Shown here: positions 10,280 through 56,028 of the stretch, one piece after another | Layout of the letters: every line of letters starts with the position of its first letter | How positions within the stretch are numbered: the stretch's first letter is position 1 | Origin: Dictyostelium discoideum | Lineage: Eukaryota | Direction of reading: 5' to 3' | DNA: 64,000 nucleotides | Assembly (NCBI GenBank): GCA_000004695.1 | Contig: CM000151.3 | Span: 1,152,001 to 1,216,000 of the forward strand | The notes under the pieces: generated by a model | Seen by the model: only the letters and a program-made list of their open reading frames with translations | What the model was told of the DNA's origin: nothing | The model's database searches: none | Program-made: the position numbers and the translations under genes

Positions 10280-11790
10280 TTATGTTGAGCATGTTGGAAT
10301 ATATTGGCAACAGTCTCTACATGTAATATTTTTATGCCTGTTAACTTTAAAGGATATACATTTCAATCCTTGGGAAGGGCAATCTAAATCTTCACATGAT
10401 AAACAATCAGTTTTAATACAAATTGGAGAATCATCAATATTATAACAACGTTTACCATGTCCACATTTGAAAATTGAACATGGGTCATAAATAATAGGAC
10501 TATCACTTCCACTTATAGAGGTAGTAACTCCGATAGTAGCTGATGTTGTTACTGTCGATCCTCCAATTGTTGACCCACTTCCTCCACTTACAGTTGATGA
10601 AGTTGTTATTGTTGTTGTTGTTGTTGTCTCAATTGGAATTTCGGTAATTGTTGATACAATAGTGGTTGCAGTTGATGCAATAGTAGTTACTGGAGAACTT
10701 AATCTTGAGGGAGGTTCAACTTCATAGCAAGTACCATTTTCCAAGTGGTGGCATTGTAATGGAAAATCTGTTTTAAACCTTTTAAAAATTATAATAATAA
10801 TAATAATATAAATAATAAATATTAATTTTTTAAAAGTTTTTTTAAAAAGATAATAATAATTACTCTAATAAATGATAATCTGGTCTAAATTTTCTATTGC
10901 AATTAATTATTTCAGTCTCAAACATTTGACTTGGTGGATAACCAATTTTTTTAAAATCTAAACTAATCTCTGATTTATCAGTAATTCCAATATAAGAATA
11001 AACTGAAACACCATCAATGAAAATAAAAAGATCATCAGAATGCGATGCATAAAAATTCATTGGAGGATTATCTGGTGGGAAAAAGCTTACAAAATGTAAT
11101 CTTGCGCACCATTTATAATTATGATCCAATCCATTATTTCCAAAACCTAAACTATCAACTGGAAAGAATTTATCATTGTAATAATGTTTTGTAAAATCAA
11201 AATATTTAAAACCAGATGTAGTTGTTTTTGAACCTTCTTCTGCATATGTCCAACCATTAAAAGTTGATTCATTATGGACCTTTTTTTAAGTAAAGAAGGG
11301 AAAAAAAAGAATTATTAAATTATAAATTAATTCCAAATTTAATTTAAATATATATATAATAAATACCAATAAAATCTTTTCAGTTATTTCATCATATGTT
11401 GGGCTATTTCCATATGAATATGTCATTGAAAGTCCATCTGGTGTGAATTGAGATTTAGCTAATAAATAATCCATTGAAAATGTATTATCTTGAACTTCGT
11501 CCTATAAAAAAAAAAAAAAAAAGAAAAAAAAAAAAATATGATTAATTTATAAATATAATTTTTAATTTCTGATGACTATTTTTTAAAAAAAAAAATTACC
11601 ATATCAAAGTCTGGATTGTTGTTTACATCAAACCATGTTAATATTTGACCTAAAATTAAAAAATTATTAATAAACAAATATAAAACTAGTAATCTAATAA
11701 TATGTATTTCTTTTTAAACCTACCATTAACTGATATGGAAATATAAGAAATCAAAAATATACATAAAAAACTATGAATTAAAAAAGCCAT
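10280..11790 (-). CDS. Secreted PA14-domain / Cys-rich / Thr-rich protein (Psi-family-like), about 388 aa. Five exons: 11790..11724, 11649..11600, 11501..11367, 11279..10864, 10778..10280.
   Basis: Exon 1 encodes a signal peptide MAFLIHSFLCIFLISYISISVNG followed by donor GTAGGT. Introns are AT-rich, 70-100 nt, with GTAATT/GTATTT donors and TTTTAG/TATAG acceptors, and all are phase-consistent. A PA14-like core reads GFGNNGLDHNYKWCARLHF..PPDNPPMNFYASHSDDLFIFIDGVSVYSY. Downstream lie a poly-Thr/Ser stretch and a Cys-rich module (CSIFKCGHGKRCYNIDDSPICIKTDCLSCEDLDCPSQGLKC...CRDCCQYIPTC). Whether the last exon is used is uncertain, because an in-frame TAA overlaps the proposed GTAATT donor at 10860-10865. 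Confidence 0.6.
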
Positions 11791-12189
11791 TGTCTTCCAA
11801 TTTAATTAAATAAAAATAATTTTGTCTGTTTTCCATTTTAAAAAGAAAAAATTGAAATAAAAAAAAAATAAAAAGAAAAAATAATAATAATAATAATTAA
11901 TAAATTAATATAAGCAAATGAAAAATTGTATTTAGGTGTGTGGATTGTTGAAATAAACTGTGGTCAGTTTATTATTTTATTATTATTATTTTTTTTTTTT
12001 TTTTTTTTTTTTTTTTCAATTCATGTAATAAATTGGGGGGTAACTTTTACAAAATAAAATCAAAAATGACAATAACAACTATTTAACAATTTTCTAATTC
12101 AATATTATAATATAATTTACTGATACACTTTTTTTTTTATTTTTTTTTATATAGTTTTTATGGAAAAAAAAAAGAAAAGAATTTGATAT

Positions 12190-12619
12190 TTAATCATCCT
12201 CAGTTGCTGAATCTAATACTTTGAGTGATACTTTTCCAGCAATTTTCAAACCTTTTACAAAACCTTTTGCAGTTTTTTCACGTTTACTCTTCTTTCTTTT
12301 AAGATAACCATTTGTAACTTTGTAATCTTCATGAACAACTTTATTTGCATATGGTCCACATGAATCTTTATGTTTCTTTAATTTTTTAAATTCTTTTCTT
12401 TGATGACCTGGCAAAGTATTTCTCCATTCTGTATATGCATGTAAATAATTTGGTGGAATATTTGTAAGACCAAAATCTAATGCTGTAATACCAATTTGAA
12501 GAACACCATGTTTAGCAAATGATAAATTTTCACATGTTAAAACTTCAATACCTAATGGTAAAAGTGAAAGATCAACACCAACAAAACCTAACAAATCATC
12601 ATTTCCAACTATAGTAAAA

Positions 12620-12692
<73 letters not shown>

Positions 12693-13207
12693 TTTAATGT
12701 TAATATTTTCATAAATATCCCAACTATAATAACATATTGTACAATAAAATAAAAAAAAAAATATATATATACCTTTATCACTATCATAAACATCAAAAAT
12801 AAAAAGTTCTCTACCAACACTTGAAATATCGAGTACAACCTCTTCATTCCAAACTGGATTTAAATTTTTTTCAATTACTTTTGTAACTTTCATAGAATCT
12901 ATACTTGTTGATTTGACTTTAATATAAGGATCAGAGTACCCTTTTTATTTAATAAAAAAAAAAAAAAAAAAAAAACAATATTAGTAAAAAATATGGAAAA
13001 CAATTAAAATAAAAAAATAAAAAACATACCATTTGCATCTGCAGAAATTAAGTTTGAAGCTGATATTAAACGAATTCTGATTTTACCATTTCCATTTGGA
13101 TTTACTACAAATGGACATGCTCCTGGTGGAAGAGATAATTTGTGATTTGCAACTATCGCAATTGGACAATTTGGATTAGTTGCAGCTATCATTGGTGCTT
13201 GCATCAT
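12190..13207 (-). CDS. C2-domain protein, about 254 aa. Three exons: 13207..13030, 12940..12773, 12608..12190.
   Basis: ATGATG lies at 13207. The C2 signature spans exons 1-2: KIRIRLISASNLISADANG|YSDPYIKVKSTS...KVTKVIEKNLNPVWNEEVVLD...FIFDVYDSDKG. Intron 1 has a GTATGT donor and AAAAAG acceptor. Intron 2 (12609..12772) contains a (TAA)n tract. The exon phases (1/1) agree. The C-terminus is basic (KRKKSKREKTAKGF). Confidence 0.75.
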
Positions 13208-13670
13208 TTTTTATTTTCAAAATTAATACTTTGAGAGTTTTTGATAAAAATGAAGGTTTTTTTTTTTTTTTTTTTTTCATAAAGGAATAAAACAAAAAAA
13301 AAAAAAAAAAAATAAAAAAAAAATAAATAAAAAAAAAATAAAAATTGATATTTTAAAAAATCAAAGAAAAAAAAAAGTTGTGATCAAGTGACACAAATTG
13401 ATGTAAAGTCAGAAATAATAAAATATAAAAAAAAAAAAAAAAAAAAAAAACAAATCAAATTGTGGATGGCACCAAAAATTTTATTATAAACAATTCAAAT
13501 AAAAATTAAAAATTTGTGCCTTTTTGAAAATGATTTGTTTAATTTTTTTTTTTTGTTTTGTTTTTTTAGATATTTTTTTTTTTTACAACTTTTTATTTTT
13601 ATTTTTATTTAAAACTTTTTTTTTTTTTTTTTAAAAAAAAGTAGTAGTAGTAGTAATATTACTTATATTT

Positions 13671-14186
13671 TTATAAACCTTCAATTCTTGTATATAAAAC
13701 ATCTTCACCTTCATCAGTTGTTATTCTCTTTTTCATTGGATTTGACATTGATTCAGTTACTTGGAATTTAAGTGAACTATATGATTTTCTTTGTGGTAAA
13801 AGTCTAATTGCCAATTGATCTACAACAGTTGTTGCTACAGCTAATAAACCAAGACCTGAAACAAGAGTTAATAATAAAGTTTGGAAATGGAAAGAACCAA
13901 TTGTACCAGTTTGAATGAAAATAACACGAATACCATGACGTTTATAAAGTAATCTTGAATGAATACTTTCTAAAATGATTGTTTCTGGTACATCATAAAT
14001 TGTATTTGCAATTTGTTGAACTGAATAAACATATTTAAAATCTGATGTTGAATATGTATATGTATTTGAATATGTAATGAAAACAAATAATACAACACCA
14101 TCATATCTAATTGAAACATTTGAATCAACTGGTGCTATATATTATATTGTTTTGTATTATATTTTGAAAAAAGTAATTAATATATA

Positions 14187-14233
<47 letters not shown>

Positions 14234-15128
14234 AGAAAATTATAAAATTAAACTTACAAGCTTGATCTAAACTAACACCACCAAAAGATAATAATTGACC
14301 AATTGTCATGATATCTGGTTTACCTGATACACCAATTGAGGTACCATTTGCATCGATTTGAACTTCATCACCATCTTGATTTAAAATGTAACCATGTAAA
14401 TCGACTGCATTAAATTGAGAACCTGATGAAGATGCATACATTGTATGATCGATTAAAATTGTAAAACTCTCAATATCTGCAATATAAATATTTTTTGCAG
14501 ATCCTGGTTCATCAACAAATTTACAAGTTGGATCGGTAAAATTACAATTTGCTTCTTGTTTTGATAAACGAACACGTGTTGTACATGTAAATGTACTATC
14601 TTGACCAACTGGAAATAATGCTAATTGTTCATCCCAATAATTACATTCAAGTGGTGTAAATGGATATGTTGAACCATTATGTTGTTGATTTGAGCAATAT
14701 GTTAAATTTGATGCAAAAGTATTTGGCTAAATAAAAAAAATAAAACAAAAAAATAAAAAAAGAGTTAATCATAAAATTTAAAATTTAAAATTTAAAATTA
14801 AAAATAAAACTTACACCTTTTAAACTTGTTCTAACAGAACCAATTGGAACTTCAGTGAAAAGGTAACCTTTTTTTATAATTGCTGAATATACAACAATGT
14901 ATGCTACAATACCAACCAAAAACGATAAATGAAGTATACCTAAACGTCTGTCTCTAATTCTTACAATCTTTACTGTAGAATATTGAAATATATCATCTGT
15001 AATAAAATTAATTTGTGTGTTAATACTATTGTGTATATTTTTTATTTATTTTTTATTTATTATTTATTTTTTTATTTTATTTCTATAAAATTTAAATTCA
15101 ACAAACCCCAATCAAAACTAAAACCCAT
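13671..15128 (-). CDS. p2xA: P2X family ATP-gated cation channel, 378 aa. Four exons: 15128..15107, 14996..14815, 14726..14258, 14134..13671.
   Basis: The spliced product begins MGFSFDWDDIFQYSTVKIVRIRDRRLGILHLSFLVGIVAYIVV. That gives the conserved P2X N-terminal Y-x-T-x-K motif and TM1. The ectodomain contains the Cys pairs (CNYWDEQ..CTTRVRLSKQEANCNFTDPTCKF), and TM2 reads IQTGTIGSFHFQTLLLTLVSGLGLLAVATTVV. Introns start GTTTGT, GTAAGT and GTAAGT and end in AG, with phases all consistent. The total is 1137 nt, or 379 codons including the stop. From memory, the length and N-terminus match the published D. discoideum P2XA. I cannot exclude a paralogue (p2xB-E) without a database comparison. Confidence 0.8.
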
Positions 15129-15501
15129 TCTTTTTTTTTTTTTTTTATTTCCAAATTATTATTTTTATTTTTTTTTTTTTTTTGTTATTTACAGTGTTGA
15201 ATTAAGAAAATAAATAAAAGATTTGTATGTATTTAAAACAAATTTATCGAAATCAATTATGATGTCACGTCTGTTTTTTTTTTTTTATAAAAAAAAAAAA
15301 AATTAAATAAAAAAAAAAAAAAAGTTTTATAAAAAATAAAATAAAAAAAAAAAGAAAAAAAATAAAATAAAAAAGTGAAAGGTCGGAAAAAGATATTTTC
15401 AATCTTTAAAGCGATCACCGCGGTTTTCAGTTTAACTAAAAAAATAAAAAATAAAATAAAAAAAATAAAAAATGAAAGTGTTTTAAAAATAAAAAAATAA
15501 A

Positions 15502-15537
15502 GGGATAAATCCATTGTTTTATTTATTTTCAATCAAA

Positions 15538-15600
<63 letters not shown>

Positions 15601-15668
15601 ACAAATAATAAATAAATAATAAATAAATAAATAAAGGAATAAATCCATTGTTTATTTATTTTTTATTT
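15502..15668. repeat. (AAAT)n microsatellite of about 27 units flanked by a 30-bp direct duplication
   Basis: aaagggataaatccattgttttatttatttt [ (aaat)n ] aaaggaataaatccattgtttatttatttt. This lies in the 640-bp spacer between the P2X gene start and the PIG-P gene end. Confidence 0.85.
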
Positions 15669-15767
15669 TCCATTTTTTTTTATTTGATTAAAAATAAATA
15701 AATAAAAAATAGTAATAAATAAAAAAAAAAAAATAAAAATAAAAAATAAAAAAAAATTATTATTGTA

Positions 15768-16114
15768 TTATTTTGTAAATAATCTTGGTGAATTTGAAGG
15801 TGAACCAGACACATTTATAGAATTTGAAGGTAAATTTAAAATTCTTTTCGTTATAACAGGTGTTGAAGGATTACCATTGGTATTTGTCGTAGATAGTCTT
15901 TGATTTGAATGAGAAAATAATGAATTGTTTGGTGAATTACTACCATAATTTATATTTGAAATAATTGATTGAGGTAATAATGATGTAGAATATAAATTTG
16001 GTGATGATAATGGTTTAGATGGTAATAAATTATTATTTGGTATATTTTTTTTATAAATGTTATTTATATTTCTATTGTTATTATTAATACTATTAATATT
16101 GTTACTATTATTAA

Positions 16115-16152
<38 letters not shown>

Positions 16153-16801
16153 ATGCTATTACTTTGAGTATGTGATGGTCTTTGTTGTTGTTGTTGATAT
16201 AAAATTTCATTTACAACACCAATTGGTATATCCTCAAGTGGCGGTATCGATTCAGGTAGATAAGCAAATGCATGGTCAGCTTCATGAGAGAATTGATCTT
16301 TGAATGTATTGAATGATTCCAATGGTTCAGTGATAATAAGGTTAATACAAAAGTAAACAACCAAACCAAAGATCGCACAAACCACCAAATACATTGGTAT
16401 AGCAATCGCCCAATATTTACTTGGATAATAGTGTACACCCAATTCTGATAACACACTCTCTGGTATAAATGCCCATAATAGATATAATATATATCCTAAA
16501 AATGTTGCAATCCAATAAACAAATCCATAAACTTCTGTATTTGCTCCTTTTTTTGGTTGTTGTTGTTGTTGTTGCTGTTGTTGTTGCTGTGTCATCTCTT
16601 GTTGAAATTGTTGATGGTGTTGAGGTGAAGAAGATAATAATGGAGTTGAAATTTGTGTGGGTGTATTTATATTTGAAATCTGTGGTGGTGTTGTTATAGT
16701 TGATAATGCTGGTGTTGTATCTTCATTATTACTATTTATATTATATACAATTGGATTACTATGACTAGAATGAGACAATGAAGTTGGTGTATTTATAGAT
16801 A

Positions 16802-16845
<44 letters not shown>

Positions 16846-17576
16846 GTAGTAGTAGTACCAATAGTGGGAGTTGCTACTGCAGCAGTAGTTATTGTTGTTG
16901 TTGGTAAATTAAGTATTGGTACTGATGATGATGAAGATGATGTAGGTATTGACCCTATTGGCGGATTAACCTGTATAGGTGAAGATAAATTTGTACTTGG
17001 TGTAGTTGCTGTTGTTGTTGCTGTTGTTATTGGTGTAGTTGTTGTTGTTGGTTGTGATGGCGTAGTAGTAGTTGTTGTTGTTGTTGTTGTTGTTGTGGCA
17101 TTTGTTGCTCCTCCTCCAGTTGAGGATGCTACATTTATATTTGCATTGGCTGATGGAGATGGTGAAGGTGATGACGATATAATTGGCATTGTAACAATAG
17201 GTACAGATGATGATGATAATGATACCATAGGAATTGTTGTAGTTGTAGTTGATGTTGTATTATTATTATTACTATTATTACTATTATTACTATTATTATT
17301 ATTATTATTATTTGAAATAATAGTAGGTGGAGAATTTGGTATATGTGTATTTATTAAATCTAATTGAAATGTATTTAATAGTGGTAATGCTGGATGTGAA
17401 GTAGAGGATTGAAGTATTGGTGATGTAGATAGTGATGTACTTCCTAATCTATTGGTATTAATACCAATGCCACCTGTACTATTATTCAATTGATGTATAT
17501 TATGTGAATTTTGTTGTGATAATCTCCTTTGATGTCCACCATGAAAAGAGGATGTTGACCCTCCGCTTTGGCTCAT
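15768..17576 (-). CDS. PIG-P (GPI-GlcNAc transferase subunit P) homologue with a long low-complexity N-terminal extension, single exon, 602 aa
   Basis: The ATG is at 17576. A conserved PIG-P/DSCR5 core reads EVYGFVYWIATFLGYILYLLWAFIPESVLSELGVHYYPSKYWAIAIPMYLVVCAIFGLVVYFCINLI. It has two TM helices and the YYPxKYWA motif. The rest is poly-N/T/Q/S typical of Dictyostelium. Confidence 0.7.
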
Positions 17577-17784
17577 CCTTTAATGTTTTTCTGTATCTGA
17601 GTCTTTGTGTTATATATATAACAGATGAAAATTGAAATTAGTTTTTTTTTTTTTTTTTTTTATGTTTTTAGAAAAATGAAAATGAAAAGATTGTGTAAAA
17701 AAAAAAAAATAAAAAATAAAAAATAAAAAAAAATAAAATTTTTAACCATTTGGAACTTGGAAAAAAAAAAAAAAAAATATTTTC

Positions 17785-17825
<41 letters not shown>

Positions 17826-18435
17826 TATGATTTAATTTTAGTTTTTTTTAATATGAATTTAATTTATAAAAATAGAGTTCTAAAAAATTCTAGAAATGAT
17901 ATAAAATATAAAAAAAAATGAATGTAATCATTTTGTTTTTTTTTTTTTTTTAATCAAAAATTTTATTTTTAGTATTTATCAATTTATGTAATTGTTTTTT
18001 TTTTATTTTAAAGAACAATGAGTAGGGAATAAATTTTATAATAATAATTAAACCCTATTCTTTTTTTTTTTTTTTTTTTTTCCAAGAGTCAAGTTTGAAT
18101 GTTTTTATTTATTTGAAAAAATGATATTTTTCCGAGTTTATAATAAAAAAAAAAATAAAAAAAAATAATAAAAAATAGCGGGATTGTGTAAATTGTACCA
18201 TTGCAATGATGGTGACAAGTTACAACAAAGAAAAAAAAAATAAAAAAAATAAAAAAAATAAAAAAATAAAAATAAATAAATATTAGGAACCAATAAATAA
18301 CGATATAACATAACAAAAAAAAATATAATCATTTGTCGCACTTTATAACCCTTATTGTTTATATTTATAAATAAAATTTAAAAATATAATCATTTTGTCG
18401 CACTTTATGATTTTTTTTTTTTATTTTTTAAATTT

Positions 18436-41465: not shown

Positions 41466-42641
41466 TTATTTTGGTAGAGAACCTTCTAAAGCTAATAAAG
41501 AAAGGGGATGAATTGGTTTGTTTTTATCAACATAATTGAACCAAATTGTTGGTTCTTTACCACGTAAATTGAATGACGTTAATTGATCTAGTGGCACATA
41601 AATAGCGCCCATACTTTCATAATTTGGAATGAGACGAGGTGGTTGATTTTCATCGATTGGTTCAGCATAAAAAATGACACGCATTCGTGAGTAATTAACC
41701 ATTGGACTAAATTCCACTCTGAGTATACCTTTTAATTCAATGTCAATACCAGTTTCTTCTTTTGTTTCTCTGATAGCACATTGTTGTAAAGCTTCATTAA
41801 CATTTAATTTTCCACCAGGTAACCAATACCCACGACCTGCAGCTTCATTGACTAATAAATAAGTATTATTTGATCTTTTTCTAACTACAACCAAACAAAA
41901 TGCATATATTTTTGAGAGTGATAATTGCTTTTCAGTTGGTGCACCTTTTTCACCATGAGATTCATGTAAATGAACACCCATTCTTTCCATTGGTCTAATA
42001 TTACAAATTGGACATAACGGTATTGAATTTTCAATATCATTTAATGAACAATTACAATGAAATATGAAAATATGTTCCCTAAGATGATCTTGGGATAAAT
42101 TTGTTGCAAATCCACTCTTATGACAAATTGTACATTTAAAATCACCAGATTTATCAATTGATGTAGTTTCAACGATTTTCAATGACTCTATAACATCATT
42201 GATTTTATTTGTAACTAATGAACTACCATTTTTAAATAATTTACATAGAAACATTGGGAATAATTTATCATTAATTTCATCTCTTCTTTTAGATTCCATT
42301 GAAATAGTTGAGTCGTCAATATCAATAAAAGTAACAATGAATGAATTCATTTTTCTCTTTTCTCTATATTCCACAATTGTTTTAGTTTTATTATCTATGA
42401 ACTCCATAATAGAACTCTCATTTGAACTTACTTGTTTATCTATTAAAATATGAATTAAAATTGCAACAATTGGATAATCACTTTTATATTCATTTAATAT
42501 TTTATTAGTTTCATTTTCATCACTACTCTTTATTATCTCTTTAAATTTTCCTTGTTTTAAAAAATTATTTAAAAAATTATCTTTTTGATCTTTTGAACTT
42601 TCTTTATTTGAAAAAAATATTGATTCAATTAATAATGACAT
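41466..42641 (-). CDS. Nudix hydrolase with N-terminal C2H2/C4-type zinc-finger region, single exon, 391 aa
   Basis: The Nudix box is GGKLNVNEALQQCAIRETKEETGIDIE (Gx5Ex7REUxEExGU). The upstream Cys/His cluster is CTICHKSGFATNLSQDHLREHIFIFHCNCS..CPICN. The ATG is at 42641. Confidence 0.75.
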   Translation of the reverse strand: MSLLIESIFFSNKESSKDQKDNFLNNFLKQGKFKEIIKSSDENETNKILNEYKSDYPIVAILIHILIDKQVSSNESSIMEFIDNKTKTIVEYREKRKMNSFIVTFIDIDDSTISMESKRRDEINDKLFPMFLCKLFKNGSSLVTNKINDVIESLKIVETTSIDKSGDFKCTICHKSGFATNLSQDHLREHIFIFHCNCSLNDIENSIPLCPICNIRPMERMGVHLHESHGEKGAPTEKQLSLSKIYAFCLVVVRKRSNNTYLLVNEAAGRGYWLPGGKLNVNEALQQCAIRETKEETGIDIELKGILRVEFSPMVNYSRMRVIFYAEPIDENQPPRLIPNYESMGAIYVPLDQLTSFNLRGKEPTIWFNYVDKNKPIHPLSLLALEGSLPK

Positions 42642-42799: not shown

Positions 42800-43330
42800 A
42801 ATAATTTTTTAGAACTGAGGAGTATTAGTATACATTCTTTTTCTTTGAACATAATCCTATAGGCACCTGTAACAAAATCAAAACATTGTTTATACTTTTC
42901 ATAAGGTAATGACCAAATTATACCTTGATCTATATTTCTACGAACATCAGCAAAGTCACAAATATGAATTCCGTGTCACTATAATAACTTCCATACATTG
43001 CTTTTGGTATTAACTCCCATGCAACTCTATCTGGACCTTTTATTGAACGGTCAAATTGTACGATCATATGTTTTAACATCAGAGTATAAAAACAGTGAAT
43101 TTTACCACTCTGGTAATGGAGGATAAGTTTTACAAAGCTTTGGCCAGTCATCACATAAATAATCATTTTCGTATGAAAATCACAAAATAAATAAATTGTT
43201 AGGAAATACCTCAATTGAATTCTAGTTTTGTTGAAAAAGTCATTTCATCTGATAATGTTTCATTTATTAATGATTTATGCAAAACAATTAAAATCAATTC
43301 AAATGACGATCACAAAGAAGTGCAGTGTTT
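42800..43330. pseudogene. Cluster of short coding-like fragments on both strands separated by frameshifts; gene remnant(s) of unknown identity
   Basis: The minus strand reads ..FDRSIKGPDRVAWELIPKAMYGSYYSDTEFI then shifts frame to CDFADVRRNIDQGIIWSLPYEKYKQCFDFVTGAYRIMFKEKE. The plus strand at 43233-43330 reads SSFVEKVISSDNVSFINDLCKTIKINSNDDHKEVQC*. The composition is coding-like, but no frame stays open for more than about 95 codons. Confidence 0.35.
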
Positions 43331-43389
43331 ATAAAACAATTAAATAATTTTAAAGAATATTAAAAAAAGGATCATTTTTTTAAATAAAA

Positions 43390-43730
43390 TAAATATAATA
43401 AAGTTTTTGTAAAAAAAAATTTTTAATTATTATTATTTATTTTTTTAAAAATTATTTAATTTTATTTATCATGGTTAATTTGCTTTAACTCTTATGCTTT
43501 AATTTCTTTTGTTAATTTTGAAGCCCACGGACACCAGAAGTAACTATTGAATCATTTATTTATTTTATTTTTAAAAAAAAATATGTTAAATTGTATTTTT
43601 TAATTTTCAAATTTTTATTTAATTGAATACATACCCTGGGAGGAAAGCTATTATTTATTGTTTTATAAATAATAAAAATAGTCATAATAAAAATAATAAT
43701 AATAATAATAATTATAATAATAATAATAAT

Positions 43731-43776
<46 letters not shown>

Positions 43777-43800
43777 GTGGAATTCATTCCCCATCTATTT
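43390..43800 (+). repeat. Dispersed repeat copy 1 (about 350 bp unique part, then an (AAT)n/(ATT)n tail of about 100 bp)
   Basis: This copy shares about 85-90 % identity with 45850..46250. Shared blocks include catggNtaatttNaNtttaactctNatgNttt, ttaattttgaagNccaNggacaccagaagNaactattgaat and tacataccctgggaggaaagctattatttattgtttta, followed by the trinucleotide tract. The two copies lie in the same orientation. Confidence 0.8.
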
Positions 43801-44077
43801 AATGATATTCACCCAAGATTAATTTTTTTTTTTTTAATTAATTATTAAAAAATTAATTTCATTGGCCCCACAAACCAAGATTTCATTTTTTTTTGAAATT
43901 ACATTTTATTAAGCTATAATTAAAATTTCAAACATAATTTATATTTTTTTTTTTTTTTTTTTTTTTTATTCTTCATAAAACAAACTACATTCTTATTAAT
44001 TTACTATACAAATTAATTTCAAATTTAAAAATATGAAATTATTATATTTTATAGTGTTTTTATTAATTGCTTTAAAA

Positions 44078-44157
44078 CTTTGTTTTTCAGAGTATTGCGG
44101 GGAGACTTATCGCAATACTCTGCCCAACAAAGTTTTAAAGCAATTATTAGAAAATAG
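44078..44157. repeat. Near-perfect 80-bp palindrome (inverted repeat with stems of about 34 nt around an 11-nt loop)
   Basis: ttgctttaaaactttgtttttcagagtattgcg-gggagacttat-cgcaatactctgcccaacaaagttttaaagcaatt. The left arm is the reverse complement of the right arm apart from a 3-nt bulge. Confidence 0.85.
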
Positions 44158-44199
44158 AAATTGTTATTCATTTATAGGTTGTAGAAATTAAACATGTTT

Positions 44200-44640
44200 A
44201 TATGAAACAATAGATTTGGAAGATGAAGTTGATTGTACAGTCATGTATCGACTGTTTTGATAGATATGGTGTTAAAAATACTCCAAATGATTCATTATGC
44301 ACCATGTGATATGTTTCTATGTGATACTCAAATTGGTTGTGTTGCTATACCAAAAGCAAATTGTCCAGAACCAAACCAATGTTAAATTCCATTAGTCTGT
44401 AATAGAGAAACTGATATTTGCGAATACGATGAAATTGATTGTGATGATGATAATGAATGTACCAATGACTATTGTGACCCAATAATAGGAGAATGTGTCC
44501 ACTTTTCCAATGATACCATTTGTTCAACTAAAGCAAGTAACTTCTCTAGTTGTTTCCATAGTGGAATATGTGGTGAGTTTGGCTGTAAATTTATAGAAGA
44601 CAGTTGTTAATGATGGTTGTAATCCTTTTGATTTTAATAA
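44200..44640 (+). pseudogene. Frameshifted fragment of a Cys-rich extracellular (EGF/Cys-knot-like) protein
   Basis: One frame reads CDTQIGCVAIPKANCPEPNQC* and then IPLVCNRETDICEYDEIDCDDDNECTNDYCDPIIGECVHFSNDTICSTKASNFSSCFHSGICGEFGCKFIEDSC*. A neighbouring frame reads MKLIVQSCIDCFDRYGVKNTPNDSLCTM*. The Cx(3-5)C spacing resembles the Cys-rich module of the PA14/Psi-like gene at 10.3 kb. Stops and shifts cannot be removed by canonical introns. Confidence 0.4.
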
Positions 44641-45849
44641 GATTTTGTCAACTTTACAAATATTATTAAAAATTTTAATTTTATCTTGATCAGTATGATT
44701 TGAAATGAATGGTTCACTTTTTCTTGATAAAACTATTAATAAATTATCTATTGGTATTGTTGGATTTTTCCAAATTAATCTTACAACTCCAAATTTAATT
44801 CATTTATTTTTGATTTAAAATTTTTTATTCCTTTTTTTTATTATTTTTTTATACATTTTTTTTTTTTTTTTTTTTTTTTCACATTTCAACATTAGCGAAA
44901 AGTAATTCTATGAGGCGCTGGTGGGTTCAATTGAAAAATTTATAACTAAATAAGCTTATTCTAAAGTGAAAACAATAAACAAATATTTTAAAATAAATAA
45001 AATAACAAAATGATTTAAAATTACAAAATAAATAAAATGAAAAAACGATTTTTTATATTCATCTTTATAAACACTTAGTTTATTATTTATTTTCGTCATT
45101 TTAATCATTTTTGTTTTATTATTTATTTTCATCATTTTATAAAAATTATTAGATTAATGGTAAAAAATCAAATGTTATCCAAATTGATTCATCGTTCTTT
45201 GTTAAATTATCACCATCATCAGTTCTACATAATGGAGGTATAATGGACAGGTGGATGAATGGAACAAAAAGTACGGGTATACCCGAACCACTAACAGAAT
45301 CAACGGCGGCACAATTAGTTTCCAACTTTTTGTTTTAGTTTACATCATGGAACCATAACATAACGCATACCAAACTCTGGTTACGTTCTAAATTTAAATG
45401 AACATTCATGAAAATTCTTCTTTTTTTCTTTTGAATCTTTATCTTTTTTACTATTATTATTATTAATTATTATTATTATTTTTATTATTAATAATATTTC
45501 CAAAATAATATTTTTTTTTAATTTATTTTTGACTGGTTTATTTTTTAGGGAATAAAATAAAGTAGTTGGAGTAAAAAAAAAATTAAAAAATTGAAAAAAA
45601 AAAAAAAAAAAAAAAAATAATTCGTGATGATCATCAAATGGTTCATACAGATATAAAACGCACACTTTTAGTTGAAAATGATGGTAGATTCTTTATTGGT
45701 GATTTTGGAAGAGCAAAATAAAAGTAAAAAAAATTATAGTTTAAATAAAAAATAAAACAATATTATATTGTATAAGGAAAATTTTAAATAAAAATAATAA
45801 TAAAAATAATAAAAATAATAATAGTAATAATATATATATGTTTTTTTTA

Positions 45850-46250
<401 letters not shown>

Positions 46251-46279
46251 ATTAGTTTTTAATTAAAAGTTTATATTTT

Positions 46280-46810
46280 TATATGTTAAAATACTTACCA
46301 CCACAGGCCTCATCAAGGTGATCTTCTACATAATTAGTTGTGGCATCACAAACTTCAATAGCCATATTAAAAAATGTGACTGTATCTGGGTCAATAATAA
46401 AGGAATAATCTAAAAGTGATGAAATGAAATTAATAAAATAATTGAATAATAATTGATTAAATCTTAAATAAAAAATCAAAAGAATATTTACGTGGATTAT
46501 AGCTTTCATTTCTCTTTTTAATTCTACCCATTACATGAACTTCATCAGATTCCTCTATTTTAAATATTGTTAGCATATGTATTTATATAAAAAATGATGT
46601 TTATTATTGTTATTATCAATGTTTTATAAATTTTATACTCACTTCCAGACAAAATATCTCTGGCTTTTTTAATTTTTTCTGAATCAGTTAATTTGAAAAT
46701 AAAATCATTATGGTCTCCATAGGTTTTTAAACCAAAATAGGCTGTTTCAGATTGTACCAATAATGAAAATGTTAAAAGAAGAGATAATAATACTAATAAT
46801 AATTTCATTT
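46280..46810 (-). CDS. Small secreted-protein gene (signal peptide) with at least two or three short exons. The 3' end is unresolved and may run into dispersed-repeat copy 2.
   Basis: Exon 1 begins at ATG 46810 and reads MKLLLVLLSLLLTFSLLVQSE|TAYFGLKTYGDHNDFIFKLTDSEKIKKARDILSG. A GTGAGT donor follows. A second exon (ESDEVHVMGRIKKRNESYNP..) has an internal GTAAAT donor and could splice to a third (YSFIIDPDTVTFFNMAIEVCDATTNYVEDHLDEACGG). That third exon ends at a strong GGTG|GTAAGT donor at about 46285 with no obvious partner exon downstream. Confidence 0.35.
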
Positions 46811-47013
46811 TAATATTTTATTTTTTTATTTTATTTAAATTTGTTATTTACAATTGAATAATTATTTGAGAATGAAATAAATTTATTTTTTTCTATTGTT
46901 TAAATAGCTTTAAAAAAAAATAATATTAATAAAAAAAAAATTAATTACTTGAGTGTTTTTTAAACTGTTGGGATGATAAAAACGTAAAATAAATTTAACC
47001 CACTCATGGGGTA

Positions 47014-47059
<46 letters not shown>

Positions 47060-47092
47060 GTAAAAATATATTTTGCTCTTTATAATAATAAC

Positions 47093-47231
47093 AACTGAGG
47101 AAAAAAAATAATCACTTTAAATCTTCCGTGGTTGGATCTGTCAAAAAAAAAAAAAAAAAAAAAAAAAAAATAAAAATAAATATAACTGAGGAAAAAAAAT
47201 AATCACTTCAAATCTTCCGTGGTTGGATCTG
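47093..47231 (+). repeat. Two copies of a 52-bp direct repeat separated by poly(A)
   Basis: aactgaggaaaaaaaataatcact(t/c)taaatcttccgtggttggatctgt occurs at 47093-47144 and 47177-47229 with one mismatch. It has a GC-rich core, cttccgtggttggatctg. Confidence 0.85.
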
Positions 47232-47469
47232 TAAAAAAAAAAAAAAAAAAAAATTAATAAAAAAAAAAAAAAAAATAATAAATATTAATAAAAAATAAAA
47301 GTTAATTGAAATTTTGTAAAATAAAAATAAATATAAAAAAATATTCTTTCTATATTTAAAAAAAAATAAAAAAAATGCAATTATTATTTATCTATGTGGA
47401 AATAAAGAAAACAAAATTTTTTTTGGGCTAATAATTTTATTAAGAATCAAAAAAATTATTTCACCATTA

Positions 47470-47645
47470 ATATTTATTTATCAGATATAGCTTCTAAAGA
47501 AAATAAATGGATTGAAAATCTTGGGATTGGTAATAGAATTACTGTGAATTCCTTTCCTGCATCAAATTTTTCAGTTTCAATTACAAATCTATCATACCAT
47601 TGATAAGTTCTATTTTGATGAAATGTCAAACGAGTAACCATATTT
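47470..47645. repeat. About 170-bp direct repeat, copy A; the paralogous copy B is at 48870..49000
   Basis: About 70 % nucleotide identity with co-linear blocks (aaaatctt..cagtttcaa..acaaatctatcata..accat). Both copies are open in one frame on each strand, e.g. minus-strand MVTRLTFHQNRTYQWYDRFVIETEKFDAGKEF against ..YDRFVFETERFVDTSNL. The two copies flank the oxygenase pseudogene. Confidence 0.6.
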
Positions 47646-48289
47646 TTAATATATAGTAGAATAATTATAATGATAATGATAATTTATAATTATTCTACTA
47701 TATATTAATCTCACGTGTTTTATTATTATTATTATTATTATAATTATTATAATTATTATTATTATTATTATTATTATAATTATTATTATTATTATTATTC
47801 TTTTTAATAATTATTTTTATTGATTTTATATTGAGATTATTATAAATTAAATGACCTTAAAAATTTTTTATTAGCCAATTTTATCATATTAACTTTTGAT
47901 ACCAATTTTATCACATTAAATTCACCCCGCTAGTTTTACCATATTAATTTCAGCCTAAAAATAGGTGCTCTATGCATGCTAAAATTACCGATGTTAGTTA
48001 TTTTTAGTTTTTTATTTTTTTTATACTTCTTTATCAAAAATGATCTTTGGCGTGTGAAGGTTTCATAGAACCAATTGAACAATAAGAAAACTAAAAACCC
48101 AAGATGACCTTTTAAAAGCATTAACTAAATTAACCGAAACTAGAATTTTTTCTTTTAAAATATTTACAATGGAATTTTGCACGTATGTAAATTAAATTTA
48201 TTATTATAATTAATTTAAAAAAAGTAAAAAAATCTAACCTTTTAATTTTATTTTAGTAAATTATTAGAAGAGATTGAAAATTTTAAAAA

Positions 48290-48700
48290 TACAGGAATAC
48301 CAACAGCAAGACCAAACTCTATGAATTATTATGGTGCAGTATACGTTGAAATGAGATTCACCGAATTTTTTAAACAACTTAGAGAAGATTATTTATCATT
48401 ATTCACATCAATTCTATATAAAGATTACAGTGGTGAAAAGTTAAATAGTCATCATGCATTTGCGGTTCAATATAAAATGGATTAAGAAAAAGAATTGATA
48501 AATCTGATATAACTGTAAATTTATGTTTAGGTAGCGAATTCACTGGTGGTTCTTTATACTTTAAAGGAATTTTAGATAAACCTGAAACTCAATAATGAAG
48601 ACTTTGAATTCAAACATATCCCAGGTGTAGCTTTAATTCATATTGGTGTTCATCGTCATGGTGCATTGGGTTTAACAATCAGAGTCAAAATTAGAATAAT
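48290..48700 (+). pseudogene. 2OG-Fe(II) oxygenase (prolyl-4-hydroxylase-like, 2OG-FeII_Oxy_3-type) pseudogene with in-frame stops and frameshifts
   Basis: Consecutive pieces in different frames match the fold's conserved order. They are ..GEKLNSHHAFAVQYKMD* (the HxD region), RIDKSDITVNLCLGSEFTGGSLYFKG (TVLxYLN..GGxLxF), and EDFEFKHIPGVALIHIGVHRHGALGLTIRVKI (distal His and RxS region). Two frame changes and at least 3 stops are present. Confidence 0.55.
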
Positions 48701-48869
48701 AAATAATAATAATAATATTGTACACTCTAATAAACATTTGTACATAAGATGTTTTTTTTTTCTTTTTTTTTAATATTTAATTATACATGTTTTAAAATTA
48801 AATAATTATAATTTATTTTTTTTTTTTTTTTTATTAGTCAATAATAGCCTCAAAGGTCTTTAATAAATG

Positions 48870-49000
48870 GACGTAAAATCTTTCTATTCGTAAAATGAGT
48901 ATTGTAAATTTGAAGTATCAACAAATCTTTCAGTTTCAAAAACAAATCTATCATATATTGAATATTTTGAAATTTGCTGTTACTCTTGTACCATTATTCT
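48870..49000. repeat. About 170-bp direct repeat, copy B (see 47470..47645)
   Basis: Paralogous to copy A, in the same orientation, immediately downstream of the oxygenase pseudogene. Confidence 0.6.
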
Positions 49001-49187
49001 AATTTTGATTTTATTTGAGGTATTATTAAGTCTATAAATTGGTACATGTCAATATTATAGTTTGGTTAAGTTTCCTCTTTTTGAAAAAGTCAATATTTTG
49101 AGTCTCATTATTGGAATTGTTGAACCTGTTGAAATCAGAAAATAATTTTCAAAGAAAAAAAAAAAAAGTTGTATATATTTTTATTTT

Positions 49188-49953
49188 TTATTTTTTATTT
49201 TTTTTTGAACTAAAAATATCTACAAATTTCTCACCAGATTCTTCAGCCTTTTTCTTTAAAATATGATTAATCTTTTGTAGTTGATGAGTTTCACTCTTTG
49301 CTTTTTTACGAGGATTATTTTCTTTAGTATTCTTTTTGATTTTATACATTTCATCTATTGATAATTTTGGTTTTTCACCACGTTCTCTATCGAAACCTGT
49401 AAATTCTGGATAATAATCATCACCATATGATGAATGTTGATCAAGAAGTTTTCTCTTCAATTGTTCGTTATTTGTATCCAATGAAATTATATTATCTTCT
49501 TCATCAGAACTTGATGAATCTTCATTAAATCTTTTATCTTGTTCTTTCATATAATCTTTTTCATGTTGTTCATAATTTTCATCAGTATTTGGATATGCAT
49601 ATTCATCTTCATTTTCATCTTGATCTTCATCTTGATCTTGATCTTCATCTATTCTATCGAATATTTGTACTTTCATAATATTTTCTTCACCTGGTACTAT
49701 TAAATCATAAAGCTGTTCATCATCATCATCATCTTGCTCTACTTCACCCTCTTCTTTAATTTCAGTGAATCTACGTTGTTTATTTTCATACTCTTCATAG
49801 TTTGCATCAGTATTTGGATATGCGTATTCATCTTCATCATCATCACCATCATCATTATCATAAATATCAATCTGTTGTTGTTGTTGAGGTTTATCTTTTT
49901 TATCATCATTCTTTTTAACTAATTCACCATCATCATTATCATAAATATCAATC

Positions 49954-50035
<82 letters not shown>

Positions 50036-51332
50036 CTTTTTTATCATCATTCTTTTTAACTAATTCACCATCTTGATTAATAAATATTTTAACAGTTTCA
50101 TCAACTTTGCTATTTGAATTTTCATCACCTTCTTTACCAATTGGTTTGAATTCATTTGAATAATCATCTTTGCTACCAAAATAATTATTACTATTATTAT
50201 TATTATTTACAAGTTTATTCGATGTTGTTGTTGTGGTTGTGGTGGTGGAAGTAGAAGGAGTGGTGGTAGTTGTCTTTTTATTATTAATTTCACATACATA
50301 TTCTTCAGTATCTGAAAATATATTATCATCATCTTCTTCATCAATTATATCTTTATTTTTATTTTTAATATTAATATCTTTATTAATTGTTGTATTTTCC
50401 TTTATATTTTCTGAATCTGAATCTGAAAATATATTATCATGGACATCATCATCAGCATTTTTAATGCTATTATTATTATTGTTATTAATATTATTATTTG
50501 ATGTAGAATCTTTGAAAAATAAATTTTTATCAGGATGATAATAATTTGTGAACATTTTCAATAATGTATTATTAATTGGTGCAGCCATTGTTTGTTTAAT
50601 TTTTGGACAATCCTCTTTACTATTTAAAATTGTAGTTGGTATATGTTGTGGAAAATCTGGGTCTAAATCAAATAGATATAACATTCTACTAGTTTGAAAT
50701 ATTTCTTTATTATATTGTTTCTGTTGTTGTTGTTGTTGTTGCTGTTTAAATTTAGTCTCTTTATCCAAAGATTGTAATTGTTGTGCTAATATTAATTTCC
50801 CAATTTCTGATTTACATTTTATTTTTGATAATCTTTCTTTTTCTTTTTCTTTTTGATTTTGTTGCTGTAATTGTAATTGTTGTTGTTGTTGTTGTTGTAG
50901 TTGATCATTTCCTTGTGATGTTGGTTGTTGTTGTTGTTGTTGTTGTTGCTGTTGTTTTAATTGCTCTTTTGTTGTATATAGTAAATTAAAATCTAAACCT
51001 TTTTTTAAAGTTGTTTCACTATTATCTACATCATTACTGTTATCATTATTATTATTATTACTACTACTACTATTGCTATTACTGTTATCATCATCATTTT
51101 TATTTTGTCTTCTTTCTCTTGCTCTATCTTTATAATTTGGGTCTATCTTTTCTGGGGCTGTTTGATAATATTCATAGTCTCTATCTATCCATTTCTTTTT
51201 TTTAGGTTTATTGTTATTTTTATTATTATTATTATTATTATTAGTATTAGTATTTTCACTATTATTGCTTGATTGACCTAATAGATTTCGAAAATCTTGG
51301 TTTGATAATTGTTTATTACTATCATTATTCAT
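49188..51332 (-). CDS. RED / IK-cytokine-like spliceosomal protein, single exon, 714 aa
   Basis: The sequence is colinear with human IK/RED. The N-terminal motifs are LSNQDFRNLLGQ (human LTNEDFRKLLMTP) and YKDRARERRQN (human YRDRAKERRDG). The RED_N core includes KGLDFNLL and EIFQTSRMLYLFDLDPDFPQHIPTTILNSKEDCP (human ELFLPGRMAYVVDLDDEYADTDIPTTLIRSKADCP). A C-terminal acidic/Gln-rich region follows with (CAA)n-encoded poly-Q. Confidence 0.8.
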
Positions 51333-51797
51333 TCAATAATTTATGGTTTTGTGATTTTGGATAAAAATAAATTTAAATAAAAAAAAAATGTAAAAAAAAA
51401 AATAAAAAAAAAAAAAAAAAAATGTAAAAAAAAAATAAAAAATAAAAAAAAAATAAATAAAATAAAAATATTCAAATAATGGTGAAACTTCTTCTTTGTA
51501 AAAAAAAAAATAAAAAAATAAAAATAAAACTTAAAAACATAAAATTGAACTTTTGAAAAAAAAAAAAAAAAAATAAAAATAAAACTAAAATTATTACAAA
51601 ATATAAAAATGAACTTCAAAACATAAAAATGAACTTCAAAAAAAAATAAAACTTAATAATTTATTAATAAAAAATAATTTAACATCAGAAATTAATAATA
51701 TTATTATATTTTTTTTTTTGTTGAAGATATTTTTCCTTGGAAATATCTCAATACCATTTTTTCAAATCTTTTTAAAACCCGTTACCGTAAAATTTTC

Positions 51798-51832
<35 letters not shown>

Positions 51833-51889
51833 TTACTATTTACCGAGTGATGGGGTGTCGATAATAAAATAGGATAAGAAAAAAAAAGA

Positions 51890-54800
51890 ATGAAAACAAT
51901 ATCATTGCTTTTCTTTTTAATTATTTTTTTTTTTATAATAAAGAATATAAAATCAGAACAAACTGAAATTTATAGTTATAATTTCAATAATAATAATAAT
52001 AACATTAATAATATTAATAATAGTAATAATTTAATAAATATTTATTTAAGTTTAAGATTTGGAAATGATTCGTCAGGAAATGGAACTTTATCAAACCCAT
52101 TTCAAACTTTTTGTAAAATAGAATCCGTGTTAAAATCACAAAATAATAATAATTTAACAATAACAGTAAATGTTGGATATGGTCTTTATGATCAATCAAA
52201 TTGTATCTATTTTTCATTAGATAATATTAATTATGATATTATTATAAAATCTTATAATGATAGTAATAATATTGGCAATACTATGGAAAGTATTAGTATT
52301 GGTGGTAGTGATGGTAGTGATGGTAGTAGTAGTAGTAGTGATAATAATGAAATTATAGAAGGAAAAGTTTTAATTCATATTTATTTAAATATTATAAATT
52401 GTAAAATAATATTTAAAGGACCATCAATAACAATATATACGTCTGGATTGGAAGTATATAATAATAGTATAATTGAATTTTCAAATGGAGTTCTAGTGAA
52501 TTTTGGATATGAAGATTTTATACATCAAATGATAAGTTCAAAATTGATTTTAATAAATTCATCAATATCATATAATTCATATGGAGCATTAGTATTGGAT
52601 GATTGTATAATGGATATTTTAGATAATAGTACATTAAATAATATTACATTTAGTTTTAATCCAAATGAACTTTCGGCACCATTCAAGGGTATTAAATTTA
52701 CAAATAGTTTAGCGGTGAATTCAATGTTTGGAATGGGTACTTATGATTTAAATGTGACAAATTCAATTCTTCAAGATTGTGTCATAGAAAGCTCAGGTTT
52801 CACAACAATTAGTAGATCAAGAATTGAACAAACAATATCCAATAATTTAAATTTAATTCAAACAATTGATACCAATTCAATGATAAATTTATATGCAACA
52901 GTTTATACTAAAAGATTTGGTGCAAGACTTTTTATCAATCATACCAAAATAATAACATCACCAACAATAAATGCATTACCAATTTTAGAAGTGTATGCCA
53001 ATTCTTATACAAATATTGCAAATTCATTAATTAGTGGTTATCGTAAAACTACACCAATAATTTTAGCGGAAAATGGTGGTGATAGTTGTACAGTGGAGTT
53101 GAAGCATGTTCATATAGAGAATTGTATCTCTTCATCATTGGCGTCTTTAGCTATGAGTACATTGACGATGTATAATATTAGCTTTAAAAACAATTACCTT
53201 GACTCAATGGTGGTTGCAAATGATGCATCTTCTATAGAGTTAAGTGACACAGTAATAAAATGTGAAGATAACAATCAATTCCTTTCAACTATAACAATGC
53301 CAATTAATCCCAATAGTCCATACAGCCGTCCATTCTCTTCAAGAAGTACAGTGGTATTGAGTAATATGAACTTGCAATGTGTTGGTCCATTTGATTTTCA
53401 AAATTCAACAGTCACTTTTTTAAATATAACAATGTCATCATTATTTCAAAGTGCCTATGTTTCTCTATATTCAAATACTACTTTAGATGTCGCCACAAGT
53501 AGTTTCTCTTCAAGCTCGTATAATGGTGGTCAATTGTTTAGTTTGGGCGATAGTGGTATTTTGTATATTCTATATTGTAACTTTAATCAAAGTGCATCAT
53601 CAATAGTCCAAGGAAATGAAGGCTCAACTGCATTCATTGATTATTCAAATTTTTACAACATAAAATCCGATTACAATGCATTATTTGTTATTGCAAACTC
53701 ATCATTGATCATTTCAAATTGTTACTTTGAAAATATTCAAACCTCTCAAACAAGTTTAATCTCTGGTACCGATTCAATCATTTCCATTGAAAATACCACA
53801 TTGAAACGTATTGGTGTCTATTTAATGGAAACGTCAGATTGTAAAATCTTTATCACTGACGTTACAATGACCAATTGCTTTACATTAATGAATAAGTTAT
53901 TCATTTCTGTACGTGACCATATCACAATTCATTCTTCAAGATTTATAGATAATCATGGATATGGTGGTACACTAATTTCAACATATTCCAGTACAATCAT
54001 CTTTTCTGTTGTTGAATTTAATGGTAATTCATTCACTCCACTACTAAGCTCATTAGGATCAAGTGTTTATCTTACAAATGTCACCTATTACAATAATTCA
54101 GGTTCATTCATTGGTAGTACTAGTGATTTGGTTGAAATTAATCAATTCCAATATGAAAATAATAAAGCACCTTGTGATTATCTATTCAGTTTATCTGGTT
54201 CCTCACCTGTGATCATGAAATCCATAACCATAGAAAATAATTACTTTTCACAATACCTCATTTTCTTTACAGAAGTACATGGTATAGAAATTTCCAATTT
54301 CCAATTCATTAACAATATTGTAGTTTCAGTTAATTCACCATCACCATTCTTTGGAATTGGTTATTTTAATGCAACTTTACAATTTACTTTATGTTCCAAT
54401 ATTTCTATAGATGGTCTTAGAGTAGAAAACAATTCAATAGGGTCTGTGTTTTTATCAAATTATCTTTCTGATTTGGTTTTAAATAATTTATTCATCTCTT
54501 CAAATACATTCTCTGATAAATTTGGTGACTTTTTAAAAAGTTCAAATTCAAGTCTAATAATTGAATCTTCAGATTTTCAAAATAACATTAATAGTATTGA
54601 CTCGGTTTTATTGTCAATCATTGATACTAATACTACAATTGATGATTGTATTTTCTTTGGAAATCAAAATCCAAATGGTATTGGATCGGTATTAAATTTG
54701 GCAATAGAAAACCAACTTTATTACTTTACAATTATCAATTCATTATTTGATTCAAATTTTGCTTTAAATGGTGGAGTATTTGGCTTTACTGGTATTTCAG

Positions 54801-56028
54801 ATTACAATGAAGATGCATTTATTAATCCATTATCTAAATTCAATAATAATACTTTTAAAAACAATTTTGCATCTCAAAAAGGTGGTGTAATCTATACTGA
54901 TTACTTTACATTTTCAAATAATATTTCAAATATTTTAAATTTAAATAATTTTGAAAATAATACTTCATTACTTGGTCCAAATTTTTCATCTGGTATGTAG
55001 TAAATAATTTTATTATTATTATTAAAATTTAAAATATATTATTAACTTTTTTTAAAATTTATTTATTAGAAATGAACTTTAATATTATTGAATTTTCAAA
55101 TTTACCAGATGGTTCAACAGCAATAATTAAATATAGATTTATTGATTATTATAATAATACATTTACACTTTATTCAGATGAATTAAATTTTAAAATTATT
55201 AGAAATTCAAATGATGATCAAATAATTTATGAAAATAATGTAATGGCAGGTCAAGGTAGTTTTTTTTATAATTTTCTTGGAAAAGCTGGTGAAAAGTATA
55301 CTTTTGAATTTAATAATCCATTCAGTTTTAATCAAACCTTTTTCGTTGGCGATTGTTTACCATACCAAATCTATTTAAATTCAAGTGAAACTTGTTCATA
55401 TTGTCAAAATAATTATGCATATAGTCAATCATATGGAAAATGCTATTCATGTGATTCAGAAATAATGACATGTTTAACCTCAACTGTATTTGCAATCGAT
55501 GGTTATTATATAGTGAATAATGATGTTTCAATGGTTGAACAATGTCCATTGGATATGTGTCTTTCTTATAATCTTTGTACATCAAATTCTAGTTTTGGTG
55601 ATTTATGCTTTAGTTGTAAAGATGAATATGGTAATTTAGTTCAAACAAAGAATGGTATAAGATGTTGCTCACATTTTAAACCAATACTTTTAATACCAAT
55701 TTTAGCATTCCATTTACTATTTTCATTAGTATTATCATTAATTAAACACAATAGTTTTAGAATACCAATTAATCAAATTATAATATTCCTTCAAATTAAT
55801 TCAGTAGTATTCTTTTCATATAGTGGTATTTACATTTTACCATTATTCAGAATGTCAGTAGATATGTTAGATGGTTATTGTCTATGGGAAGGTTTAAATT
55901 ATAATTTCAAAAGTTTTTTATCATTTTCAATTATAATTTCATTATTTTTAATTGATTCAACTGATATTACACCTTCAATTTTAATTAAAATTTATAAAAT
56001 AATTTTATCATCATCAACATTTTACAAA

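Follow-up and report, generated by a model that had tools for sequence, protein, structure and literature searches.

Among the closest described relatives of the locus analyzed here are the members of the OGFOD2 family, in which PF25238 is accompanied by a 2OG/Fe(II) oxygenase domain of the double-stranded beta-helix type, and whose nearest solved relatives by sequence are procollagen lysyl hydroxylases of viral and human origin (6ax6 and LH3). A literature search yielded no paper on OGFOD2 in Dictyostelium. With regard to genomic context, the nearest precedent is that of the unprocessed pseudogenes found in segmental duplications, that is, DNA copies that moved between chromosomes together with their intron and flanking sequence, lost one end and were left to neutral decay. 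The present locus shares these traits, but its pieces are arranged as a circularly permuted mosaic, and a perfect 25-nt palindrome is found at one of the breakpoints.

The window examined in this work is a stretch of 64,000 nucleotides from Dictyostelium discoideum chromosome 2 (to which all coordinates refer, unless a parent locus is named), with a G+C content of ~22% and with poly-N/poly-Q ORFs. The original prediction, whose quoted peptide pieces are found in the plus-strand frames of 48250–48700, had placed a 2OG-Fe(II) oxygenase pseudogene at 48290–48700. The existence of such a pseudogene was borne out. The concatenated conceptual translation of the relic matched PF25238 (OGFOD2-like) in Pfam with E = 3.3e-23, although only over profile positions 32 to 123 of 123, and an exhaustive HMMER comparison with the protein library gave 1466 proteins at E ≤ 1e-3 (top 1e-63). 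The oxygenase fragments were indeed located within the proposed interval, but the relic is longer, spanning 48058–48699 on the plus strand and including an upstream exon piece and an intron.

The anticipation that an intact parent should exist elsewhere in the genome was also confirmed. A second protein search retrieved intact D. discoideum proteins of 417–430 residues (cluster P0155, P0208), among them DDB_G0270778 (UniProt B0G0Z0, ‘Fe2OG dioxygenase domain-containing protein’), a 417-aa protein encoded on chromosome 1 of AX4. Three parent loci were compared: L004, which belongs to the same assembly as L001 (GCA_054883475.1, an independent D. discoideum assembly); L002, from another D. discoideum strain; and L003, from D. 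citrinum. The relic and the AX4-type parent are 94.4% identical at the nucleotide level over 558 aligned coding bases, and they share the intron position and a 3′ flank that includes a repeat (denoted here as B); over the same 558 columns, the parent is 93.0% identical to its D. citrinum counterpart. A search of the literature for the identifiers DDB_G0270778 and DDB_G0272068 (the latter discussed below) found no mention of either.

The parent had been expected to be prolyl-hydroxylase-like, an assignment that held at the level of the oxygenase superfamily and no further. DDB_G0270778 aligned with 6ax6, a lysyl hydroxylase domain from mimivirus (E = 7.7e-10), as well as with human LH3, and it conserves the HxD motif (in GFHYDES), the distal His (in HRHGA) and the TSGER Arg. 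In view of this conservation with lysyl hydroxylases, the family is best described as OGFOD2-like or lysyl-hydroxylase-like, and ‘prolyl hydroxylase’ is too specific, being acceptable only as a superfamily-level label.

Alignment to L002 and L004 defined the parts of the relic, all on the plus strand. The first one (48058–48182) corresponds to the 3′ end of the parent’s upstream exon (parent codons ~215–257) and it is followed by a retained intron, GTATG...TTTTAG, at the parental intron position (48183–48256, 24 bp shorter than that of the AX4-type parent) and by the homolog of the parent’s last exon (48257–48699). The homology with the parent has a sharp left edge at ~48058, around parent codon 215, which marks the point of 5′ truncation; codons 1 to ~214 are absent from the relic, and a tblastn search with P0155 recovered only parent residues 225–401 in the window. 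The remaining coding sequence carries a 1-bp frameshift deletion after 48084, a nonsense substitution (AAA to TAA) at 48483–48485, a 13-bp deletion after 48495, a 1-bp insertion at 48591 and a 59-bp deletion after 48673, and it still ends in the parental stop codon (48697–48699). Therefore, the frame is broken, as originally noted, but by four frame-shifting indels and a single nonsense change rather than by two frameshifts and several stops, since the remaining stops are a consequence of the frameshifts. Together with the 5′ truncation, these lesions leave no uninterrupted full-length reading frame.

The consequences for catalysis were evaluated by positioning the catalytic residues through the alignment to 6ax6. 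With the 13-bp deletion the relic has lost the His codon of the iron site (GFHYDES in the parent), so that the ‘HxD-like’ motif announced for this locus is not an HxD, and the distal HRH of the HxD...H facial triad is present but out of frame. The 59-bp deletion, in turn, eliminates SGERTNLILW, including the Arg (TSGER in the parent) responsible for binding the C5 carboxylate of 2OG. Because both of these residues are lost, the relic, in contrast to its parent and to the members of the OGFOD2 family, cannot encode an active enzyme, and it has no plausible enzymatic function.

Considering this evidence, we regard it as very probable that 48058–48699 is a non-functional, unprocessed, 5′-truncated pseudogene of DDB_G0270778, derived from a segment copied to chromosome 2. 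The location on a different chromosome and the 5′ truncation could also be reconciled with a processed (retrotransposed) pseudogene. However, the parental intron is kept at the same site, which indicates a DNA-level duplicate and not a retrocopy; moreover, non-transcribed 3′ flank (48700–48948, common with L004) and neighboring genes were copied too, and no poly(A) tail is found at the end of the homology, so that a retrocopy has practically no likelihood. The same can be said, on other grounds, of the notion that an intact gene has been disfigured by sequencing or assembly errors. AT-rich, homopolymer-rich DNA is prone to sequencing error, and the two available assemblies do differ in the length of nearby poly(A) tracts. 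Nevertheless, L001 matches the window at 99.9% over 38156–58863, with five base substitutions (42669, 44085–44087, 45536 and 55955) and otherwise only differences in homopolymer length, and it is base-for-base identical over 47262–55954, which implies that the defects of the relic are not sequencing errors. In addition, deletions of 13 and 59 bp in complex sequence and the 5′ truncation speak against such errors. This alternative, raised in the original prediction as part of what could overturn the pseudogene call, is excluded.

A further piece of information came from the substitution pattern. Changes were polarized by means of D. citrinum and the second D. discoideum strain. The lineage of the relic received 17 non-synonymous and 7 synonymous substitutions, compared with 1 and 6, respectively, in that of the parent, although these numbers are low and the alignment is faulty at a few codons around the 1-bp deletion. 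This difference shows that the relic has been subject to neutral drift under relaxed constraint, while the parent is under purifying selection. Synonymous-type differences amount to 13 between relic and parent and to 24 between the parent and D. citrinum, so that synonymous divergence is about half of that separating D. discoideum from D. citrinum, and this would place the duplication after the split of both species, as far as such small counts allow.

These figures also bear on the suggestion that a functional, truncated gene persists at the locus, encoding a non-catalytic, partial OGFOD2-like N-terminal domain. A gene predictor did call a model here: the ab initio annotation of the newer assembly presents a 140-aa protein over the relic (ACTFIT_002370, P0001), and an ATG at 48169 plus the genuine intron 48183–48256 give a frame open to the TAA at 48485, yielding a spliced ORF of ~81 residues. 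However, reconstruction of the model indicated that ACTFIT_002370 relies on the genuine intron and two invented ones (48465–48575 and 48751–48837), which skip the stop, two of the indels and the catalytic core. Given that these ad hoc introns bypass precisely the lesions and the core, the model is regarded as an artefact stitched over a pseudogene. As the relic has neither the promoter nor the first 214 codons of its parent and is devoid of the catalytic His and Arg, and as the 17:7 ratio is that of neutral drift, a functional truncated gene appears highly improbable.

The original prediction had described the pseudogene as bracketed by direct repeats of ~170 bp, in what looked like a tandem-duplication unit of which one copy had decayed. 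Repeats of such a unit would be expected to mark its boundaries and to be each other’s closest relatives. The repeats are real, albeit shorter (~150 bp) and 64–68% identical: within the window, 47473–47620 aligned with 48830–48979 over 151 columns (67.5% identity, E = 5.5e-16), the local alignment score being 50, compared with 11.6 ± 1.8 (maximum 22) in 1000 shuffles. No third copy was found in the window. Their interpretation as boundaries did not survive the comparison with the parent locus. Alignment to the parent’s flanks, as had been recommended, revealed that both repeats read on the minus strand and derive from the C-terminus of an unrelated gene that neighbors the parent, named here gene X, which encodes an uncharacterized protein of 422–515 residues ending in LVTRLTFHQNRSYQLYDRFVFETPKFDVGKDFSVILLPISRFSIHLFSIEVISDK before its stop codon. 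Repeat A (47399–47651) contains the last ~57 codons and the 3′ flank of an X-family gene, reads MVTRLTFHQNRTYQWYDRFVIETEKFDAGKEFTVILLPIPRFSIHLFSLEAISDK followed by a stop, and matches the final 55–57 codons of X in the parent locus (86.6% nucleotide and 81% amino acid identity to X of L004). Repeat B (48837–48990), more decayed than A, is an X-family C-terminus with stops; in L004 a copy of it (11697–11820; 87.7–92% identical) immediately follows the parent on its 3′ side, where it reads GFVFETETLVVSSNKFTILILPIQRFSTHLLTLEVIID followed by a stop and ends prematurely in foreign sequence that probably stems from a transposable element.

The repeats are 64–71% identical to each other, and each of them reaches 87–92% identity with its own parent-locus counterpart, which implies that the divergence between A and B predates the inter-chromosomal copy. 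Furthermore, homology to the parent’s flank resumes after B at 49047–49092, indicating that B belonged to the segment copied with the pseudogene. Hence, A and B are independently decayed remnants of the C-terminal coding region of X, passengers and not boundaries of the segmental duplication. A local tandem unit limited by these repeats, in which one oxygenase copy had decayed and the other had been lost, would account for the direct repeats on both sides of the relic, and tandem duplication can produce a circularly permuted order of segments such as that described below. However, the repeats are opposite-strand relics of the coding end of another gene, they were already divergent before copying, B is internal to the parent-shared segment, and no second oxygenase copy is found in the window, all of which makes the tandem unit very unlikely. 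As for the family behind the repeats, no Pfam domain was found in X, leaving it without a name, a reconstruction of its 422-aa gene model with canonical introns did not reproduce the model, and no X-family sequence was found around the oxygenase gene of D. citrinum.

The recognition of X remnants as part of a copied segment affects several gene models. The minus-strand ORF at 47474–47641 is identical to DDB_G0272068, a 55-aa hypothetical protein of AX4 chromosome 2. Homology of repeat A to X stops ~10 bp upstream of its ATG, which derives from a TTG (Leu) codon of X; the DDB_G0272068 lineage has accumulated 9 non-synonymous and 2 synonymous changes, with no sign of constraint, and no homolog other than X was found. 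Consequently, this ORF, although identical to the annotated one, is most likely not a gene of its own but, judging from its alignment, the C-terminal stump of an X paralog with a fortuitous ATG. Downstream of the pseudogene, a 714-aa ORF on the minus strand (49188–51332) encodes a RED-like protein (Pfam RED_N, E = 1.4e-47). A 733-aa RED-like model of the newer annotation replaces its natural C-terminus, VDIFSSKKNKK before the stop, with a terminal exon taken from repeat B (48884–48977), by means of an extra intron at 48978–49223 (GTAGAT...AACAG), and this terminal exon is probably an artefact. Similarly, a 465-aa NUDIX model of the newer annotation (NUDIX ORF at 41466–42641, minus strand) extends into the area of an X relic at 42843–43170 and may include a spurious exon from it. 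Further downstream, 51890–55000+ (plus strand) holds a very large ORF of more than 1036 residues (a 1656-aa gene model), with a signal-peptide-like start and many N-x-S/T-rich repeats, for which there is no Pfam match on record.

The pseudogene turned out to be one component of a larger patchwork. In the parent locus the order is oxygenase (+), BP74_N (−), gene X (−), Dicty_CTDC (+) and a gene encoding a 1084-aa protein (−), and the stretch 42843–49092 of the window is made up of pieces that are 87–95% identical (gaps excluded) to this neighborhood in L004. From left to right, these are an internal X relic just upstream of the NUDIX ORF (42843–43170, minus strand; 40% amino acid identity to X residues 20–121), fragments of the BP74 flank (43182–43776), the 5′ part of the CTDC gene (43938–44617), a 185-bp fragment of the 1084-aa gene (44604–44788), and a paralog of the BP74_N block (45801–47180, minus strand, with a gene at ~45918–46808), which together with repeat A is colinear with positions 11906–13853 of L002. 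On the right side of the pseudogene lies the co-duplicated 3′ flank of the parent (48700–48836, plus strand), part of a match between 48695–48948 and L004 11589–11820 (92% identity excluding gaps; the match to L002 reaches 11756), and the flank continues on the plus strand at 49047–49092 (L002 11768–11825), where the copied segment ends on the right, ~95 bp short of the RED-like stop codon. A low-stringency blastn search of 48930–49200 was dominated by low-complexity matches, and a tblastx comparison of the parent locus with the window was noisy and revealed nothing beyond the blastn map. Upstream of the BP74_N paralog, 47084–47265 comprises two tandem 91-bp units (AACTGAGGAAAAAAAATAATCACTT[T/C]AAATCTTCCGTGGTTGGATCTGT plus poly-A) that are 90% identical; the parent loci L002 (13208–13385) and L004 (17301–17454) have conserved this region, which may be a promoter element.

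Between repeat A and the pseudogene, there is a junction filler of 0.4 kb (408 bp) with (ATT)n (47652–48057), for which neither the parent loci nor the rest of the window provided a counterpart. At 47860–47950 the filler carries three loosely repeated motifs of ~27 nt (CCAATTTTATCA[T/C]ATTAA...), which likewise match neither the parent loci nor any other part of the window. Exactly at the breakpoint that ends the X homology of repeat A lies a perfect inverted repeat of 25 nt with a 13-nt loop (47646–47670/47684–47708, 100% complementary), whose DNA fold reaches −17.6 kcal/mol (z = −7.5), and this palindrome may be the footprint of snap-back synthesis or of hairpin formation at the breakpoint. 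A link to tRNA-targeted retrotransposons was considered as well, and it is unsupported, there being no tRNA gene in the window.

These observations are best explained if a segment of the parent locus, from the middle of the gene through the 3′ flank, was copied to chromosome 2. The copied flank already carried repeat B, as an old relic of the neighboring gene family, and other pieces of the neighborhood came along: BP74_N, the terminal part of X that gave repeat A, and fragments of the CTDC and 1084-aa genes. Lacking the promoter and the first ~214 codons, the oxygenase copy has since drifted neutrally, acquiring its four frameshifts and its stop. The chromosome 1 to 2 direction, a single age for the event and the path of rearrangement are inferred. 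The oxygenase gene and that encoding the 1084-aa protein (1084/1116 aa) are kept in synteny at the D. citrinum parent locus, and fragments of both are found in the window, which points to chromosome 1 as the source and chromosome 2 as the target. D. citrinum, however, has no BP74/X/CTDC block at its parent locus, so that the evidence on direction concerns the oxygenase and 1084-aa fragments. Likewise, identity to the parent locus differs among the blocks (95% for the oxygenase piece, 87–92% for the others), and therefore a single event is not proven.

The arrangement of the pieces gives some indication of how the copy could have been formed. The order in the window (BP74 paralog, A, pseudogene, B) is a circular permutation of the parental one (oxygenase, B, BP74, X). 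The segment with the BP74 paralog and A corresponds to parent positions 12589–17877, that with the pseudogene and B to 10822–12475, and the outer ends of these permuted segments are only ~80–125 bp apart in parent coordinates. The permuted order, the palindrome and the filler fit equally well a circular intermediate or a tandem duplication or template switch followed by deletions. A more specific and rather unlikely scenario is that extrachromosomal circular DNA (eccDNA) from chromosome 1 was opened and reintegrated on chromosome 2, or that template switching with snap-back took place and, separately, that DDB_G0272068 is an incipient de novo micro-gene. To our knowledge, duplication through circles or template switching has rarely been documented in Dictyostelium, and a literature search on segmental duplications in this genus found nothing relevant.

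The parent locus itself is polymorphic between D. discoideum strains (L004 11821–16118 versus L002 11694–12022). The AX4-type strain (L004) has ~4 kb of additional sequence between the oxygenase gene and BP74_N, which includes an Integrase_H2C2 (integrase-domain) gene model and an inverted X relic, whereas the strain represented by L002 lacks both this sequence and repeat B. Moreover, the BP74_N/X block (L002 12022–15142 versus L004 16119–19184) shows ~8.5% divergence between the two strains, compared with ~2–3% for the housekeeping genes that flank it, and the block is either fast-evolving or exchanged among paralogs.

As far as the 2OG oxygenases are concerned, the relic is an ordinary pseudogene and it leaves the understanding of these enzymes unchanged. 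The locus provides a documented case of segmental duplication between chromosomes of D. discoideum, in which the copy was rearranged and permuted and the neighborhood of the parent is polymorphic among strains; if the circle or template-switch reading were true, it would preserve the footprint of one of those seldom-documented mechanisms. The main value of these results lies in the correction of three gene models, namely ACTFIT_002370, the 733-aa RED-like model and DDB_G0272068.
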